A DNA stretch of 32,000 nt from Candidatus Saccharimonadota bacterium (lineage in GTDB: Bacteria > Patescibacteriota > Saccharimonadia > Saccharimonadales > UBA4665), in the NCBI GenBank assembly GCA_016699935.1, contig CP064992.1, positions 120,001 through 152,000 on the forward strand. The letters are read 5' to 3'. How positions within the stretch are numbered: position 1 is the first letter of the stretch; each line of letters starts with the position of its first letter. The notes beneath the pieces are model-generated. The model saw only the letters and a program-made list of their open reading frames with translations, was not told the DNA's origin and did no database searches. Position numbers and translations under genes: made by a program. Positions 2,131 to 31,088 of this stretch are shown piece by piece.

Positions 2131-3522
2131 ATGGATAAACACAAAAAGCGCGTCGACGGCCTATCAGAGCAAGTCAACTCGTTTTACGAGCAAAAAAAGC
2201 CATTCAAAATCTATCATGGCAGTACTAACTCCACGCGAGTCCAAGTCTTCAAACGAAATGAAATGCTCGACACAAGTGGCTTAAATCATGTGCTAAAGAT
2301 TGATCAAGCTAAAATGACCGCCCTAATAGAGCCAAATGTCCCCATGGACAAACTAGTTAAGGCAACACTGAAGTACGGCCTCATCCCACCTGTAGTCATG
2401 GAGTTCCCTGGTATCACTGCGGGAGGCGGGGTTCAGGGGGGGGCGGGTGAAAGCAGCTCTTATAAATGGGGATGTTTTCATCAAATTTGTAATGAATATG
2501 AAATGGTCATCGGTGATGGTACAATCGTGACTTGCAACCCACAGGAAAATAGCGACCTGTTTTACGGAACGGCCGGTTCGTATGGAACACTCGGCGTTAT
2601 GACTGCTGTTGAATTACGTCTCATCCCGGCAAAAAAATATGTACAACTAACCTATTTTCCAGTCAAAAGCTTCGATGCGGCAGTTAACCGTATGCAAAAA
2701 GAAGTGGCCAATAAACCCGATTTTATCGATGGCATCATGTTCGCCCGTGACCGTGGCGTCATCATGGTCGGTAAACTTAGCAATGAAAAGAATGGCCAAC
2801 TGACACGATTTAGTCGAGCTCGTGACGAGTGGTTTTCCCTAGATGCTGATAAAGAATCTCGAGGTGATGTCTTTAACAAAACAATTCCACTCTCCGACTA
2901 CCTTTTCCGCTACGATCGAGGTGCTTTTTGGGTCGGAAAGTATGCCTTCAAAGTATTCAATATTCCTTTTACAAAATTTTGGCGAACATCGCTGAACTGG
3001 TTGCTGCATACACGCAAACTCTATGAAGCTCTTCAAGAAAGTGGTATATCCCAGCATCATGTAGTGCAGGACTTGGCTCTACCCGTAGAGACTGCGGTGG
3101 AATTCATGAGCTTCGTTGACGATAACCTTGGCATATACCCCTATGGCTCTGTCCCCTCAAAACAGATAAGTCGTCGCCCTTCATTTCAAGTAATTTACTT
3201 GCACCGCTTGTTATCAACGTAGGTGTATGGGGTGAGTTTATTCCTGATTATGATGATTTTTTAAGAATAAATCGTTCAATTGAAACAAACTTGACCCGTA
3301 TGGGAGGCAAAAGTGGTTTTATGCTCACGCATACTACCCAGAGGAAGAATTCTGGAAAATATATCCAAAGAACCAGTACAAACTCCTCCGTAAAAATACA
3401 AATCGTTCTACCAGCCATCTATATATGACAAAGTTCGCGTCACGGATCGCTTTACCGTCGATACACACCGCGGATTATGGCGTACCATGCTTCGTACTTC
3501 CCGGCTTAGGATTGAGCCATGA
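2131..3522 (+). CDS. DHCR24/DWF1-like FAD-binding oxidoreductase (PCMH-type), frame-interrupted near the 3' end
   Basis: ORF 2131-3222 contains GESSSYKWGCFHQICNEYEMVIGDGTIVTCNPQENSDLFYG...GTLGVMTAVELRLIPAKKYV and HHVVQDLALPV. These closely parallel delta24-sterol-reductase family motifs. The C-terminus (INVGVWGEF..., EEFWKIYPKNQYKLLRKKY, IYDKVRV...RLRIEP) continues in other frames to TGA 3520-3522. Confidence 0.8.
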
Positions 3523-6230: not shown

Positions 6231-7654
6231 ATGTCTCTTTTCAACAAATCAACTAAATCTAATGTTACTAACTTGGCTGGCGGTAGTGCTTATAAGCAGT
6301 CGCCTGAGAACACCTTAGTATCCATACTTTTAACCAACTTCTTAAAGAATCAGACTTACCGTTCCGGCACTGATGAACTGAAGTCGTTAAAAGATACAAT
6401 AGCGCAGAACGATCCATTGTTTGCAGCTAAAGCAGGTGTGTACGCTCGTAATGAGTTTGGAATGAGGTCCGTAAGTCATGTGCTTGCAGGTGAGCTTGCT
6501 CATATTGTTAAGGGCGAGGCATGGTCTAAGCAGTTCTACGATAAGGTAGTACATCGTCCTGATGACATTACCGAAATTGTTGCTTACTACATGCAAGAGT
6601 ATGGCAAGCCATTACCTAATTCACTTAAAAGGGCTTAGCAAAGTCTTTCGATAAGTTTGATGCCTATCAGCTTGCTAAATATCGAGGCAAGACCAATAAG
6701 ATTTCACTTGTTGACGTTGTCAATTTGGTTCGACCGCGACCAAGCGAGAAAAATAGCGATGCCCTCAAAGCTCTGGTTAATGACGAGTTACGTTCTGAGA
6801 ACACTTGGGAAGCGCGGATTTCTGCTGCTGGTCAAGATACTGAAAAGCGTCGCCTGGTATGGAAAGACCTGCTTGAGACAAACAAATTAGGTTACTTTGC
6901 CTTACTACGCAACCTGCGTAACATCATGACCGATGCACCAGACATGGTAGCTCTAGTGTGCGAGCAGCTGGTAGATGAAAAGCGAATTAAAGGCTCACTC
7001 GTTTTACCTTTCCGCTTTACTTCAGCCATTAAGGAAATCTCTCAGATACCTGAGTCACGCGACGTTATTTCTGCTCTATCTAAGGCTGTCGATATTTCAG
7101 CTCAGAATTGTCCAGAGTTGGACGGCTCAACACTAATTGCTGTAGATACGTCAGGCTCGATGTCTGGTCGTCCATCAGAAATTGCAACTTTGTTTGCAGC
7201 CATGCTGTATAAGAAGAATAGTAAAGCAGACCTGCTACTATTCGACACAGAGTCGCATCCTCTGACACCTAACCCTAACGACTCAGTGATGTCAATTGCA
7301 CAGTCGATGCCATTCCACGGTGGCGGTACAGATTTCAACATCATCTTCGACTACGCACAGAAAGCCTACGATCGAATCATCATACTATCAGACATGCAAG
7401 CATGGTCTGATCAGGGTATGTATGGTTGGTCACAAGGTGGTGGCAATCCTAAGGCTGCATTAGCTGCTTACCGTGACCGTACGGGAGCCGAACCTAAAAT
7501 CTACTCGTTTGATTTACAGGGTTACGGTACGCTTGAGTTTCCTGAGAAGAATGTCTACAGCCTTGCTGGATTTTCTGATAAGGTATTCGACCTCATCAAA
7601 ATTCTCGAAACTGGTAAGAGTATGGTTGACGTTATCAACCAAGTGGAGCTTTAA
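6231..7654 (+). CDS. rsr: Ro60-related protein (TROVE domain plus vWA/MIDAS), single frame interruption
   Basis: ORFs 6231-6638 and 6725-7654 join as ...PLPNSLK / KGLAKSFDKFDAYQLAKYRGKTNKISLVDVVNLVRPRP across the A4/G3 run at 6625-6632. TROVE-like N-terminus: NLAGGSAYK, DPLFAAKAGVYARNEFGMR. vWA MIDAS: LIAVDTSGSMSG. RBS ggagg at 6221-6225. Confidence 0.9.
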
Positions 7655-9340: not shown

Positions 9341-9473
9341 GCTTGCAATGGTTTGTGAGCCGGAGTAGACTAGTAAATACCATCGTTGAGGTGGTCACGG
9401 CCGCAAGGCAGTGTGCGGCAACCAGCAATGGGAACCGCATGAAAAAAGTCCGTCGCAAGACGGACTTTTCATT
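9341..9473 (+). ncRNA. Candidate small RNA (promoter-to-terminator unit), unknown family
   Basis: TATAAT at 9329-9334, with a weak -35 ttatcc at 9306-9311. About 130 nt then run to a strong terminator at 9442-9473. Internal stems include gccgca/tgcggc. The only ORF (9343-9525) reads through two terminators. Confidence 0.3.
9442..9473. terminator. Bidirectional rho-independent terminator
   Basis: aaaagtccgtc-GCAA-gacggactttt, with an A-run before and a T-run after. Confidence 0.8.
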
Positions 9474-9954: not shown

Positions 9955-10015
9955 AGGTTATCCCTCCTTTTATGATTAATATCCGTTGGAAATTACCACT
10001 GTAATTTCCACTTTT

Positions 10016-10058: not shown

Positions 10059-10570
10059 TCACAATCGGCTGTGGGCATACACTTCAAATGTGTAGTTTGG
10101 CTCCCCAGTTTTCGGTTTGCCAGGTTCACTTGATAGTAGTTGAAAATCCTGCAGGCGTTGCATAGGATAGAATTTGTCGCAGTCGTAGTTGGCATGAATC
10201 CGCGTGATGTATATCTCATCTGGCTCAACATCATCGTGAATACTGCCGTTCCATACATTTTTGCCGGCTGCTGCCATATCTGCTAGAAAATCTTTCAGCG
10301 AATGGACGATAGTAACGCCCGCTTCATCTGGTAAATCATGGGATGTCAGCACATACAGGTGCCTCCCAGCTGGAGGCCAAGCACTCTGACCTTCACGTTC
10401 CTGAAGCCCTTTTTCATTGCCTGGTACGTACCCCGGCCAATTAGCAGGTTTCCGCCAAAACGCCTGCTCTGTTCGTGAAAGTACGCTAAATCTTCCGGAA
10501 TAAACCATGGTGTCATGCCGTCCTTCGCCATACCACCCATCTCGTCAACAGCCACGATGTCTCGTATCAT
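10059..10570 (-). CDS. folA: Dihydrofolate reductase-like protein, frame-interrupted
   Basis: ORF 10346-10570 reads MIRDIVAVDEMGGMAKDGMTPWFIPEDLAYF...LLIGRGTY. ORF 10059-10508 reads GRHLYVLTS...DEIYITRIHANYDCDKFYP. Order and motifs fit the DHFR fold. Confidence 0.7.
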
Positions 10571-11836
10571 CGCAATTCCTGGTTCGCTTCCCTTAGTTGG
10601 GCGATCAGGAAAAACGAACCGGTAATAACGCCGACATTCTGAACTTGCTTCATGAAAACTGCATAAGCCTCGTCTTGATTAGCAACTAGGCGACATTTCA
10701 CCCCATTTGCCTTTAGTACGCTGACGATTTCACTTGGATCCATGGAAACGATGGGTAAATCCTGCGTTTTCGAGAATGTAGTCACTATTACTTCATCAGC
10801 ATGCTTTGCAAGCAAGGGTGCGATGTCTGCTATTTCTTTCCCCTGTTTGAGAGCGAATAAAACAACCGGGCGTACACCTTTATGTAGTTCGGCAAAACTT
10901 TGCCAAAAAGCCGTCATTTTCTGGCCATTATGCGCCCCCGTCCATAATGACAGTTTTACCTTCTATCGAGCGTATGTCCATCCGTCCTGGCACGTGCACT
11001 GCTTGCGTTTTTGCAACTGTGTCGCATTTAACACTTTTAAATCATCGCGACGAGCTAGCCATTTGTAAGCAGCGTAAGCTAGCAGCCAGTTGCGTTTCTG
11101 GTAATCAGGCATGCCGGCTGGGAATTCACCGCCGTAGGCTTTGGCCAGTCTATCCTGATCAAACGTTAGCAAGTCGGCTCCTTCTTGTTGGCTAACCCAG
11201 AAACGAACCACCTGCATATTCTCTGAGTCTTGAGAGTACATGAGCGCCGTGTTGCCCTCGTGGATAATACCGGCTTTTGGTAAGCTATTTTGCCCAGCGT
11301 GTCGCCAAGCGCTTCCATATGATCATAGCCAATGTCGGTTATGACGCACAGTTTATCAGCGCGCGCCGCTACATTTGTGCTGTCATCTAGCCCGCCCATG
11401 CCGGTCTCGATGACTGCGTAGTCCACATTTTCTTGCTTGAAGACCCAGTAGGCAAAAGCAATCAGCACTTCGAAGCGGCTGGGGTCTCGGGCGTACCTGC
11501 CAGTAACTGTGTGAACTCTTCAAAATATTTGCAGAACTGTTCTTCTGACAAAGGCACACTGTTTATCTGTATGCGCTCATTCATACTGTCGATGTATGGC
11601 GAAATGGTTGACCCGACCTTGCAGCCAGCTGCCGTGAGTAGTGCCGATATATAGTAGGTTGTCGATGTTTTGCCGCTCGTACCAGCTATGTGTACTACCC
11701 GAAGCGCCTTTTCGGGGTGGCCGATATGCGCCATCAGCCGCTCTGTCCGCCCGAGGGTGATGTGCTTGCCGACAGTATGTTTTGATACTGCATCATAGGG
11801 GCGCAGCGCCTTTTCAACCTCAGCAATAGTAGTCAT
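10567..11836 (-). CDS. folC: Folylpolyglutamate synthase/dihydrofolate synthase (Mur-ligase family), fragmented into 4 ORFs
   Basis: Start MTTIAEVEKAL at 11836. P-loop HIAGTSGKTSTT. VIETGMGGLDDSTNV. ITDIGYDHMEALGDTLGKIA. C-terminal ORF 10567-10917. The pieces are 11462-11836, 11166-11468, 10963-11241 and 10567-10917. Confidence 0.8.
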
Positions 11837-16304: not shown

Positions 16305-17951
16305 TTAGGGCTTCACCTTATTCCGCAGTGGTCGAAGATATTGGCGCAGAATAACTGCCTTCTTTTCGCCAACCACTTTGGCGAGCTCCCAGTCACGTGC
16401 CTGCATAACACCGCGCATACTGCCGAAAGTTTTGAGCAGTTTTTTGCGTGTAGCTGGGCCGATGGTGGGAATATCGTCTAGCAGGCTAGCTGTTTGCTGT
16501 TTCACCTTCAGTGTCGAATGGTAGCTTACGGCAAAACGATGCGACTCATCGCGGATGCGCTGTAATAGTTTAACAAGATTAGTATTGTGCGGTAGGTTCA
16601 CCAAAATGAAATCATCTGTCTCAGTCGTGTAACCCCCTAGCTTATGCAGCATCTCCGTGTTAAGAGTCACATTTGATCCGGCACTGTCATCTTGAGCGGA
16701 GGGAACCAAAGCCGAAAGATCCTTTCTAGGTACTAAAGAAGATTCTTCGACTTCGCTCAGAATGACCCGATCCGAAATCAGTGATTTCTTTATAACTATC
16801 TGCTCCTCCCTTTTAGCCAGCCCAATCATCCGCAGCTTGCTCAAGGACAGTCCTTGAGCACCAAGTCTGATAGAGATTTCGTTGCGGGCGCGGATGGCGG
16901 CGTCTAGCTGCCCTTTGCCGCCGTCTATCAGTAGAAGATCGGGCATACCCCAAGCCTTAATATTTTTCTCGCTCAAGCGACGAGTTATGGTTTCGTTCAT
17001 ATTGTAGAAGTCATCGTTTTGCTGGCGCGACATTTTGAATTTGCGGTATTGCCCCTTGTCGCTCACTCCATTGGTGAAAACGACCATACTCGCAACTACA
17101 TTAGTACCCTGCATATGTGATATGTCAAAACCCTCTATACGGCGTGGATATTTTTCTAAGCCGAGTAAATCTACCAGTTCGGTGAGTGCGTGATCTTTGG
17201 AAATATCCAGGAACTCTTTGTCGCTGAAAATGACCTGTTTGCCAAGGTTCTGGAGTGCGAGCATTTGGTTTCGCAACTTCTGCTGCGAGCTCAAAATTTT
17301 GCGATTTGCTCGCAATTTTCATTTCTTTTTCCACCTGGCGAATAATCTTATCACGCTTGCCTTCGATGACGGCAATGAGCTTACGCAAATTTGCCCGATA
17401 CTCCGACAGATTCGTCTTGCCCTCCTCTAACCCGGGGTCTAGACCAAGATGATAATACAAGCTAACGCGTTTTTGCCCAGTTGGCTTGGAATAGGCAAAT
17501 GGAAAGATACGCCGCAGGAGCTTCAGTGCTTGACGCACACTAAAGGTGCTAAAGTACGGTCCATAGTAGCGCGCACCATCGTCGAGCGGCCGTCGCGTAG
17601 TACTCACCGTGGGGTATTCGCTGTCATAATCTATGCGTATGTAGTAGCTCATGGCTTTATCGTCGCGAAGCAAGATGTTGTAGCGCGGCATGTAGCGACG
17701 AATCATTTCAGCCTCAAGAAAAAGTGCCTCGAGCTCGCTCTCCACTTCCATCCAGTCGGTGTCTGCTATCTCGGCAACCAGTGCTTCTGTTTTGGGATCG
17801 CGCCCCGGCTCGCCTGAAAATACTGCCGCACCCGATTCCGCAGCACTGCCGCCTTCCCCACATAAATAATCTCTCCCGCCACATCCTTATGAAAATACAC
17901 CCCCGGGGTTTTGGGTAGAGTCTTTAGTTTATTTATGAGTATGGTTTTCAC
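16305..17951 (-). CDS. uvrC: Excinuclease ABC subunit C, frame-interrupted, with in-frame palindromic insertions
   Basis: GIY-YIG N-terminus: [33 protein letters not shown] (ORF 17766-18020). Middle part: ORF 17125-17751. C-terminal nuclease/HhH: [52 protein letters not shown] (ORF 16305-17315). Confidence 0.9.
16686..16766. repeat. 81-nt inverted-repeat-bounded hairpin module inside the uvrC ORF
   Basis: gtcatcttgagcg (16686-16698) pairs with cgctcagaatgac (16754-16766): 11 WC pairs, 1 G-U, 1 mismatch. Inner hairpin gaaag-atc-ctttc (16714-16726). Translated in-frame as ...[31 protein letters not shown]... Confidence 0.6.
16840..16860. repeat. 21-nt perfect palindrome inside the uvrC ORF, sharing its core with the hairpin at 31043-31084
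   Basis: gctcaagga-cag-tccttgagc. The 16-nt string ggacagtccttgagca recurs at 31059-31074. Confidence 0.7.
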
Positions 17952-18038
17952 GCTAATTAATATTGTAGCAATAGTCAGATTAAGATAGATCAGCGCGGCG
18001 AGCAATAATTTCCAGCTCAAGTTTTTCTCTAAACGCTT

Positions 18039-28835: not shown

Positions 28836-28868
28836 ACTTATTGGCTGGAATAAATCCAGCCAATAAGT
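28836..28868. repeat. 14-bp perfect palindrome in an otherwise unassigned 370-nt region
   Basis: acttattggctgga-ataaa-tccagccaataagt, flanked by C-rich tracts. The neighbouring hairpin is gaggg-ctcg-ccctc (28819-28832). Confidence 0.7.
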
Positions 28869-30089: not shown

Positions 30090-31003
30090 TTATGAGAAAT
30101 CGCTCGAATATTTTTTTTCAGATATATTTTTGAGACACTTGGCTGAGTGATATAACTTGGTGGGATCTTTGAGACAAGTTTCGCATATTAGGACGAGGTC
30201 ATTGCAGGCGGGGTTGGCGCAGTTTTCGTAGTTACTGGTTTTGCCGCCGCAGTGGATACACTCGCCGATGACTTTTGAGTGGTCACTAAAGTTCATGCCC
30301 ATTCGGCCGTCGAAAACATACAGCTGGCCTTCCCAAAGACCGTCATCGCCGTAAGCCTCACCGTATTTCACTATGCCACCGTCTATCTGATAGACGTCTT
30401 TGAAACCGCGCTGTTTCATCATGGCACTGAGCAGTTCGCAGCGGACGCCGCCAGTGCAGTAAGAAATCACCTTTTTGTCCTTTAGCTCGTCGTATTTGCC
30501 ACTTTCCAGTTCACGTTTAAAGTCTCGTGAAGTTCGTGTGTCTGGCACGACGGCGTTTTTGAAACGCCCAATTTTGGCTTCGTACTGGTTGCGGCCATCG
30601 AAAAACACGACGTCATCACCGTATTTTTCGACCATGGCGTTAACCTGCTCTGGTTTCAGGTGAGGTCCTGTACCTACAACTCCTTTTCATCGACTTCTAT
30701 TTCTTCCCATGTTTCAAAAGCTACTAGCTCTTTTTGACCTTGACCTGCATACGCGGAAAATTATCGCTTCCACCATCACTCCATTTCCATAGGATATCTT
30801 TGAATCCCGGATACTCTTTTGTTTTTTTCTACATATATTTTGAGATCCTCGATGTCCCCGCCCACTGTTCCATTGATACCCTGCTTACTCACAAGTATGC
30901 GACCATGCAAATTGAGCGAGTCACACAATGTTTTCTGCCAAAGCTTCAGCAGCTCAGGGTCTTTAACTGGGGTAAACTTGTAGTAGAGTAATATCTTTTC
31001 CAT
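30090..31003 (-). CDS. trhO: Rhodanese-domain tRNA uridine(34) hydroxylase (UPF0176/YceA family), frame-interrupted
   Basis: [17 protein letters not shown]...[14 protein letters not shown] (ORF 30776-31021). Rhodanese active site [11 protein letters not shown] and C-terminal Cys cluster CIHCGG...[16 protein letters not shown] (ORF 30090-30635). Confidence 0.8.
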
Positions 31004-31042
31004 CCACCCCATTATACCCAACCCTGAAGAAATGACAGCATG

Positions 31043-31088
31043 CTCCTATCTATGCTCAGGACAGTCCTTGAGCATAGATAGGAGTTTT
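31043..31088 (+). terminator. Orphan terminator-like long hairpin (19-20 bp) followed by tttt
   Basis: ctcctatctatgctcagga-cag-tccttgagcatagataggag, then tttt. No plus-strand gene lies upstream. Confidence 0.5.

Follow-up and report, generated by a model that had tools for sequence, protein, structure and literature searches.

Two different non-autonomous palindromic repeat families have very probably inserted into permissive loops of the C-terminal endonuclease half of UvrC, with the reading frame kept, in a Candidatus Saccharimonadota genome. The uvrC gene in question lies on a 32,000-nt stretch of contig CP064992.1 (assembly GCA_016699935.1, positions 120,001 to 152,000), hereafter the window. 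An earlier note on this DNA had proposed that elements resembling miniature inverted-repeat transposable elements (MITEs) or repetitive extragenic palindromic (REP) sequences colonise a coding linker of uvrC while preserving the frame. This proposal was borne out. The smaller unit, a 23-nt palindrome, is dispersed and flanks a Y1 transposase gene, and the larger one, an 81-nt unit, matches the profile of an element family. The coordinates are collected in Table 1.

We retrieved 60 Saccharimonadales uvrC loci (comparison loci and contigs carry L-numbers as labels), measured two spacings, and counted the basal lengths among the 120 closest homologues. At site 1, the spacing from DGGKGQ to LAKREE is 26 aa in 61 of the 120 homologues and 35 aa in the window (+9 aa, 27 nt). 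At site 2, the spacing from LAKREE to LLQRIRDE is 50 aa in 48 of the 120 and 84 aa in the window (+34 aa, 102 nt). The inserts had been given as 7 and 27 codons; they are real insertions, but their sizes against the orthologues are the +9 and +34 aa just stated, and both are multiples of three bases. Only a subset of Saccharimonadales carries the segments, and homologous segments in unrelated lineages were not found. Judged from these sequence comparisons, both units are lineage-restricted additions to loops, not ancestral sequence. The inserts are old and vertically shared inside subclades.

The palindrome at site 1, which can also be written as TGCTCA(A)GGACNGTCCTTGAGCA, is read as A153-S159 (AQGLSLS) inside the +9-aa insertion ahead of IGLAKREEQ. 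It is perfect, as had been noted, but spans 23 nt and not 21. Likewise, both units had been placed between IGLAKREEQ and a downstream block of 12 residues, which is correct for the 81-nt unit but not for the 23-nt palindrome, which lies upstream of IGLAKREEQ. The palindrome folds at -15.2 kcal/mol (z=-2.8), and its length falls in the 20-40 nt of hairpin-capable REPs. Two of its three reading frames are open on either strand, and the third contains TGA. An exact second occurrence of its 16-nt core, GGACAGTCCTTGAGCA, lies at 31059-31074, and 100 shuffles gave no match of any kind (0/100); the claimed identity with the centre of the hairpin at 31043-31084 is therefore upheld. With one indel allowed, the similarity of the two copies reaches 22/23 nt. 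The second copy is intergenic, upstream of a UPF0176/rhodanese gene, and its extended stem resembles the 19-bp stems of the transposase-flanking copies in L084 described below. An operator or terminator role of this hairpin was considered and rejected. An identical 23-mer occupies the same uvrC site in L006. The uvrC DNA of the window and L006 is 70.7% identical, and 44% at third codon positions, and the longest identical run is exactly the 23-mer.

The palindrome was then traced beyond uvrC. The scan of metagenome contigs gave 10 loci, five of which are contigs of one metagenome. At least 8 distinct exact copies were found in the contigs of one metagenome, mostly in intergenic or short-ORF (open reading frame) DNA, and one copy is in frame in a methyltransferase-like gene (Table 1). 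Dispersed copies are present in L061-L069. On L065, two copies (1845-1867 and 3181-3203) bracket a PIN-toxin/antitoxin pair and a small ORF. On L062, two copies bracket a 206-aa ORF whose Pfam Y1_Tnp (IS200-like) score, 33.4 bits, exceeds the cut-off of 23. In five species (L062/L076, L078, L084, L082, L083), the Y1_Tnp gene has the 23-mer, or a version with 1-2 base changes, on either side; their transposases are 59-99% identical to the query. The flanking 23-mer is identical in L062/L076/L078/L084. The distance of the flanking palindromes is 12-35 nt to the start codon on one side and 9-40 nt to the stop codon on the other, and some have stems extended to 19 bp. As the unit is a perfect palindrome, the orientation of the flanks can be read only from the central base. 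In 4 of the 5 species, the upstream copy has A and the downstream copy T at this position; L082 has the same base on both sides. The hairpin stays unchanged while the transposase diverges to about 75% identity and is slightly altered at about 60%. Because of the dispersed copies and the flanking of the Y1 transposase gene on both sides, we regard the 23-nt palindrome as a REP-type repeat by sequence.

The transposases carry invariant HUH (NHIH) and tyrosine (RYIHxNP) motifs, and the source records of homologues give the name 'transposase [Candidatus Saccharibacteria]' or 'REP element-mobilizing transposase RayT'. A sequence search against solved structures gave nothing meaningful. The gene lies antisense between ruvA and ruvC, or beside ruvB, in 5 of 6 species. 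Its carriers at the ruv locus are L076 (10001-10621), L078, L082 and L084, with proteins 61-99% identical, together with L080 beside ruvB; one of the contigs is 939 kb long. The ruv-locus transposase fits a domesticated, vertically inherited gene. In L083, the gene adjoins ATP synthase genes. The sixth species, L080, has a 54%-identical protein and the same architecture with a different palindrome (Table 1). This palindrome nearly equals the published Smal2 REP stem of Stenotrophomonas maltophilia (GCGCCGGGCCATGCCCGGCG), a likeness that may reflect coincidence, shared ancestry or transfer. Comparison of the 23-mer contigs with the uvrC loci by tblastx yielded only matches of about 42% identity, which did not settle their taxonomy; the taxonomy was taken from the named transposase homologues and from synteny.

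The second unit belongs to another family. A nhmmer profile built solely from 17 full elements of unrelated viral-collection contigs aligns over its positions 1-79 to window 16766-16686 (E=3.3e-7 in 1.24 Mb). The 5' arm pattern of the family, GTCATTCYGAGCGAAG(Y)CGARGAATC, has exact matches in 7+47 viral-collection contigs, and its inverted partner, ...CTCRGAATGAC, often follows 25-60 nt after the 5' arm, which gives elements of 52-117 nt. Canonical copies form hairpins of about 30 bp (z=-11.9), and the window copy is decayed by comparison. Across its entire length, the window unit forms a single long, imperfect hairpin, with z=-2.4 for the sense RNA and z=-2.05 for the DNA. The palindromic unit of 81 nt and 27 codons claimed in the earlier note thus exists as a long hairpin, but its terminal inverted repeat pairs in only 11 of 13 positions. 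The same profile found intergenic copies in the closest, syntenic relative, L071 (3149-3244), and in L050; for the copy in L071, there is no spacer at the corresponding spot of the window. The site-2 insert is homologous in DNA in L055, L071/72, L073, L074 and L075, with both arms conserved. The family became visible because the longer 5' arm pattern and the profile were used rather than the terminal 13-mer. Searched at both ends with at most 2 mismatches, this 13-mer gave no further paired copy in 874 kb of Saccharimonadales loci, and its single matches numbered 28 against about 20 expected by a hand estimate. A blastn search of the L074 element against the plasmid collection gave no match. 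We take the 81-nt unit to be an old, mutated copy of a widespread foldback element of about 80 nt.

Table 1. Positions of the repeat units, the uvrC gene pieces and related features (positions without an L-number refer to the window).
Feature	Position	Strand	Basis or remark
Decayed ~80-nt palindromic element, GTCATTCYGAGCGAAG...GAATGAC family	16686..16766	-	nhmmer profile and hairpin folds; reads as 27 residues
Whole site-2 insertion, 34 codons, residues 178-211	16683..16784	-	Spacing against orthologues without insert; contains the 81-nt element
REP-type palindrome TGCTCAAGGAC-A-GTCCTTGAGCA	16838-16860	.	Perfect 11+1+11; within the minus-strand uvrC ORF
Second REP copy, one A fewer	31043..31084	.	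Inside an extended 16-bp stem; fold z=-8.8
uvrC, whole gene	16305..18020	-	Three ORF pieces, two frameshifts; Pfam matches and sequence at the breaks
uvrC piece, GIY-YIG	17766-18020	-	Pfam
uvrC piece, UVR	17125-17751	-	Pfam
uvrC piece, RNase H-like endonuclease and HhH, 336-aa ORF	16305-17315	-	Pfam
Perfect in-frame uvrC hairpins, 20-27-bp stems, 53-56 nt	L001:10405-10458, L002, L003:4959-5014, L050:7603-7655, 7450-7492		Two tandem 23-mer-related units
In-frame 23-mer in a 461-aa TRAM/tRNA-U5 methyltransferase-like gene	L064:11169-11191		Peptide AQGLSLSK, frame as in uvrC
L080 palindrome beside the distant RAYT-like gene, (C)TGCGCCGGGCC-A-GGCCCGGCGCA	L080:9899-9923, 9968-9988		

The content of the two sites varies among the orthologues. 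Site 1 holds one unit in the window and L006, two tandem related units with perfect 25-27-bp stems in L001-3 and L050, and no insert in L005, L055 and L071/72. Other lineages have CAAGG...CCTTG palindromes of their own, either at site 1 (L057, L017) or at a third site (L055/L005/L071, L050). The large hairpins of L001 and L050, searched against all loci with blastn-short, matched solely in uvrC. Perfect long stems in the coding uvrC of L001/L002/L003/L050 are striking and would be expected to be unstable. L017 has a variant palindrome, TTTCAAGGCTNAGCCTTGAAA, in uvrC and elsewhere in the locus (L017:8980-9000 and L017:103-127). At site 2, a further palindrome, TTGGGAGGTCCGTCCTCCCAA, with the peptide LGGPSSQ, was seen in L004, L007, L009, L012 and L013; of the 120 closest homologues, 9 carry it.

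The earlier note had suggested modelling whether the linker tolerates the insertions. In an AlphaFold model of the 336-aa ORF (mean predicted local distance difference test score, pLDDT, 66.8), both inserts are placed in loops. Residues 181-210 of the site-2 insert have a pLDDT<50 and no secondary structure, lie between strand 172-176 and helix 220-225, and are predicted to be disordered; the site-1 peptide forms a loop after helix 134-152. The model is consistent with tolerance of the inserts. Since the 23-mer is open in two frames, the insert lengths are multiples of three and the positions are in loops, the gene would tolerate them. We propose that the 23-mer is the cognate hairpin of an HUH/tyrosine (IS200-type) transposase resembling the REP-associated tyrosine transposases (RAYTs), and that, by analogy with Proteobacteria, such an enzyme may have placed it by acting on the single-stranded hairpin. 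The repeats would enter structurally permissive UvrC loops and persist because the reading frame is kept. The insert peptides would be carried as the loop after helix 134-152 and as a disordered loop of about 30 residues; translated, they would be neutral or nearly so, and the proposal requires no function of them.

The uvrC gene of the window is itself broken, and this bears on the meaning of 'in frame'. The 336-aa C-terminal ORF holds both units without interruption, as had been stated, but the full gene is divided by two frameshifts. A tblastn comparison with L071 reads the gene in frames -1/-3/-1, with breaks at window 17790 and about 17270, one of the two in an A-run. Relative to L071, the breaks are single-base frameshifts, and other genes are split in this way too: a folC-like gene (10570-11836) by two frameshifts, a DHFR gene (10068-10570) by one, and the UPF0176/rhodanese gene (30090-31021) into two ORFs. 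The folC and DHFR frameshifts that were inspected are at A-runs, and at least 3 breaks are A-runs one base short relative to L071 (cccaaaacag, ccaaaagcc, gaaaaagg). Because the frameshifts lie at A-runs, the split genes are most likely homopolymer indel errors of the assembly and not gene decay. Therefore, the statement that the inserts are in frame rests equally on the orthologues and on the window. The best protein matches of the window UvrC are Saccharimonadales UvrC proteins (at most 76% identity). The window has other perfect hairpins at 129-155, 9444-9469 and 28836-28868 (stems of 13, 11 and 14 bp), all non-coding and none akin to either repeat family; at least the one at 9444-9469 (AAAAGTCCGTC..GACGGACTTTT) looks like an ordinary terminator.

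Several observations weigh against the insertion of two repeat families. For the 81-nt unit, 6 of 100 shuffles matched the 13-mer as well as the 11/13 terminal repeat does, so that this repeat by itself is near the chance level, a weak point; no further copy of the element occurs in the 32-kb window. The site-2 insert appears at three places on a rough neighbour-joining tree, and its history may be one insertion followed by several losses, more than one insertion, or allele exchange. For the 23-mer, the window has only two copies; in copies that could be oriented, the 5' flank is rich in C/T (..CCCT) and has no GT(A/G)G head. The sole NCBIfam match of the transposase is 'REP-associated tyrosine transposase' (REP_Tyr_transpos) at 38-39 bits against a cut-off of 80, and neither the window nor the uvrC loci gave a match to the hidden Markov model of the transposase. 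Finally, the mobility and the translation of the inserts are what we infer from these data.

We weighed insertion of mobile repeats against other explanations of the palindromes. The hairpins could be functional cis-elements of uvrC, kept by selection, whose mRNA or DNA structure tunes UvrC translation, the stability of the mRNA, or replication and repair nearby. Such a role would suit the identity of the 23-mer between the window and L006 in a gene of such low identity, the different-sequence hairpins at the same site 1 in several lineages, the roughly 8-fold hairpin density in uvrC ORFs given below, the bias of such repeats toward repair genes in other phyla (PMC3733652), and the better folding of the 81-nt unit as sense than as antisense RNA. 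However, about half of the orthologues have no hairpins, including the closest relatives of the window at site 1, the 81-nt copy is decaying, and the enrichment counts are not phylogenetically independent. The identical 23-mer also stands in unrelated intergenic places and around the transposase gene; therefore, its conservation is a property of the repeat family and not of uvrC. We consider selection for a cis-element unlikely. Even less probable is that the segments are an ordinary lineage-specific UvrC linker, expanded locally by slippage or template switching, with incidental palindromy. The length of site 2 is indeed hypervariable in Saccharimonadales (+2 to +55 aa), many of its inserts have no recognisable repeat, and the 81-nt terminal inverted repeat is imperfect. 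This explanation is largely refuted already by the exact 23-mers in other genomic contexts and around the transposase gene and by the full-length profile match to elements of unrelated contigs, and the 16-mer repeat was absent from all 100 window shuffles.

Two further explanations are scarcely credible. One is that the palindromes are paired sequences of the DNA-uptake type, enriched in genome-maintenance genes as in Neisseria. Neisseria uptake sequences are biased toward repair genes, and competence and type IV pilus genes lie near the Saccharibacterial transposase locus. The density is far too low for such a role: the 32-kb window has 2 copies, and most of the 60 uvrC loci have none; moreover, the units are whole insertions and not motifs built by point mutation, and the palindromes flank a Y1 transposase gene. 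The other is an artefact of assembly or amplification from chimeric foldback reads. The window assembly does contain homopolymer indel errors, but assemblies made independently in different studies show the same hairpins at the same sites (L006; L001/L002/L003; L055/L071/L072), which refutes an assembly artefact. Insertion of two palindromic repeat families thus remains our preferred explanation.

The distribution of hairpins among genes was also compared. When perfect hairpins with stems of 10 bp or more were counted, there were 12 in 94.5 kb of uvrC ORFs and 8 in 527 kb of other ORFs of at least 300 aa from the same loci, an approximately 8-fold higher density in uvrC, where the counts are phylogenetically non-independent and represent 4-7 separate origins. 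This enrichment parallels the published repair-gene bias (PMC3733652) and is only suggestive. A wider proposal would be that Saccharibacteria have an undescribed, deeply conserved REP-transposase pair, with the gene fixed between ruvA and ruvC, the hairpins over-retained in uvrC loops, and a functional coupling between them; we hold this to be unlikely. If it were true, it would be an independent replication of the unexplained repair-gene bias of intragenic REPs in other phyla. The coupling could then mean modulation of UvrC or of the mutation rate, or action of the transposase on repair-generated single strands, as opposed to neutral hitch-hiking.

These findings show that the tiny, gene-dense genomes of Saccharibacteria also host REP-type and foldback repeats, and that essential proteins can accommodate such repeats in the form of additional loops. 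The 23-nt hairpin and the HUH transposase of about 205 residues are a candidate pair for repeat movement outside Proteobacteria. The uvrC inserts also offer an independent data point for the unexplained preference of intragenic REPs for excision-repair and recombination genes. In practice, such inserts would explain length variation in UvrC annotations and mark spots of the assembly that are prone to fold back.

Among the known systems, the element of about 80 nt is comparable to MITE-like foldback repeats, such as Correia/NEMIS and RUP, reviewed in PMC3184786. The GTCATTC...GAATGAC element resembles them in its long terminal inverted repeats, variable centre and many dispersed copies; it differs in that neither a target-site duplication nor a parent insertion sequence was found for the element in this analysis. 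The Rickettsia palindromic elements (RPEs; Ogata et al. 2000), as summarised in PMC3184786, are about 100 nt long, lie in frame in housekeeping genes, and are translated and tolerated at protein surfaces. By that summary, the uvrC inserts are alike in their mode of insertion and differ in sequence family and host lineage.

The nearest precedent for the location is the survey of Di Nocera, De Gregorio and Rocco 2013 (PMC3733652), who found REPs, single or as dimers, in frame in the UvrABCD, RecBCD and PolA genes. These intragenic REPs encode about 7-30 extra residues (dimers often 20-30 aa), are thought to lie in linkers or loops, and over-represent repair genes among the REP-tagged genes. The uvrC inserts described here are likewise in frame and in predicted loops of an excision-repair gene. 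That survey covered GTAG- and CGTC-tagged families of other phyla, and the 23-mer carries neither tag. A CGTC-tagged REP has a CGTC/TGTC tag, an 8-9-bp stem starting with AT, a 4-5-nt loop and a CCA tail (PMC3733652), whereas in the 81-nt unit the tag reads GGTC, the stem has 5 bp (ATTCT/AGAAT), the loop measures 12 nt and the tail is CTT; the likeness is only loose, an xGTC tag and an AT-starting stem. The uvrC insert of L017 at site 2 does fit the type (CGTC-ATTCCCG..GGGAAT-CCA) and is a textbook CGTC-type REP pair (CGTCATTCCCGTGAAAATGGGAATCCA ... GGATCCCCGGTCAGGCCGGGGATGACA).

The 23-mer and its transposase are closest to the REP-RAYT (REPtron/REPIN) systems of Proteobacteria (Nunvar et al. 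2010, PMC2817692; Bertels and Rainey 2011, PMC3116915), whose defining unit is a transposase gene with a copy of its own repeat on each side (PMC2817692). Nunvar et al. placed RAYT homologues in Gammaproteobacteria only (PMC2817692). Later RAYT surveys added Proteobacteria, Cyanobacteria, Chloroflexi and the Planctomycetes-Verrucomicrobia-Chlamydiae (PVC) group; Patescibacteria, the phylum of Saccharibacteria, is not listed. Our literature search for RAYT or REP with Saccharibacteria or Patescibacteria found no relevant description, and such a REP-transposase pairing in Saccharibacteria appears to be undescribed so far. The Saccharibacterial system differs from the classical one in several respects: the GT(A/G)G head, which is the classical REP cleavage motif, is missing from the 23-mer, which forms a perfect palindrome of the 11+1+11 type; the NCBIfam score of the transposase does not reach the RAYT cut-off; the host belongs to the Saccharibacteria (Patescibacteria); and the copy number is seemingly low. 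It resembles REP-RAYT systems in having a short dispersed hairpin that is mostly extragenic, a single HUH/tyrosine transposase gene with its own repeat on both sides (seen here in related genomes only), a gene neighbourhood that is constant across species, and repeat variants that track the divergence of the transposase, as in L080 with its 54%-identical protein and other palindrome. That palindromic repeats occur in frame within housekeeping and repair genes is already established through the RPEs and the intragenic GTAG/CGTC REPs, and the uvrC inserts extend this to a new phylum.

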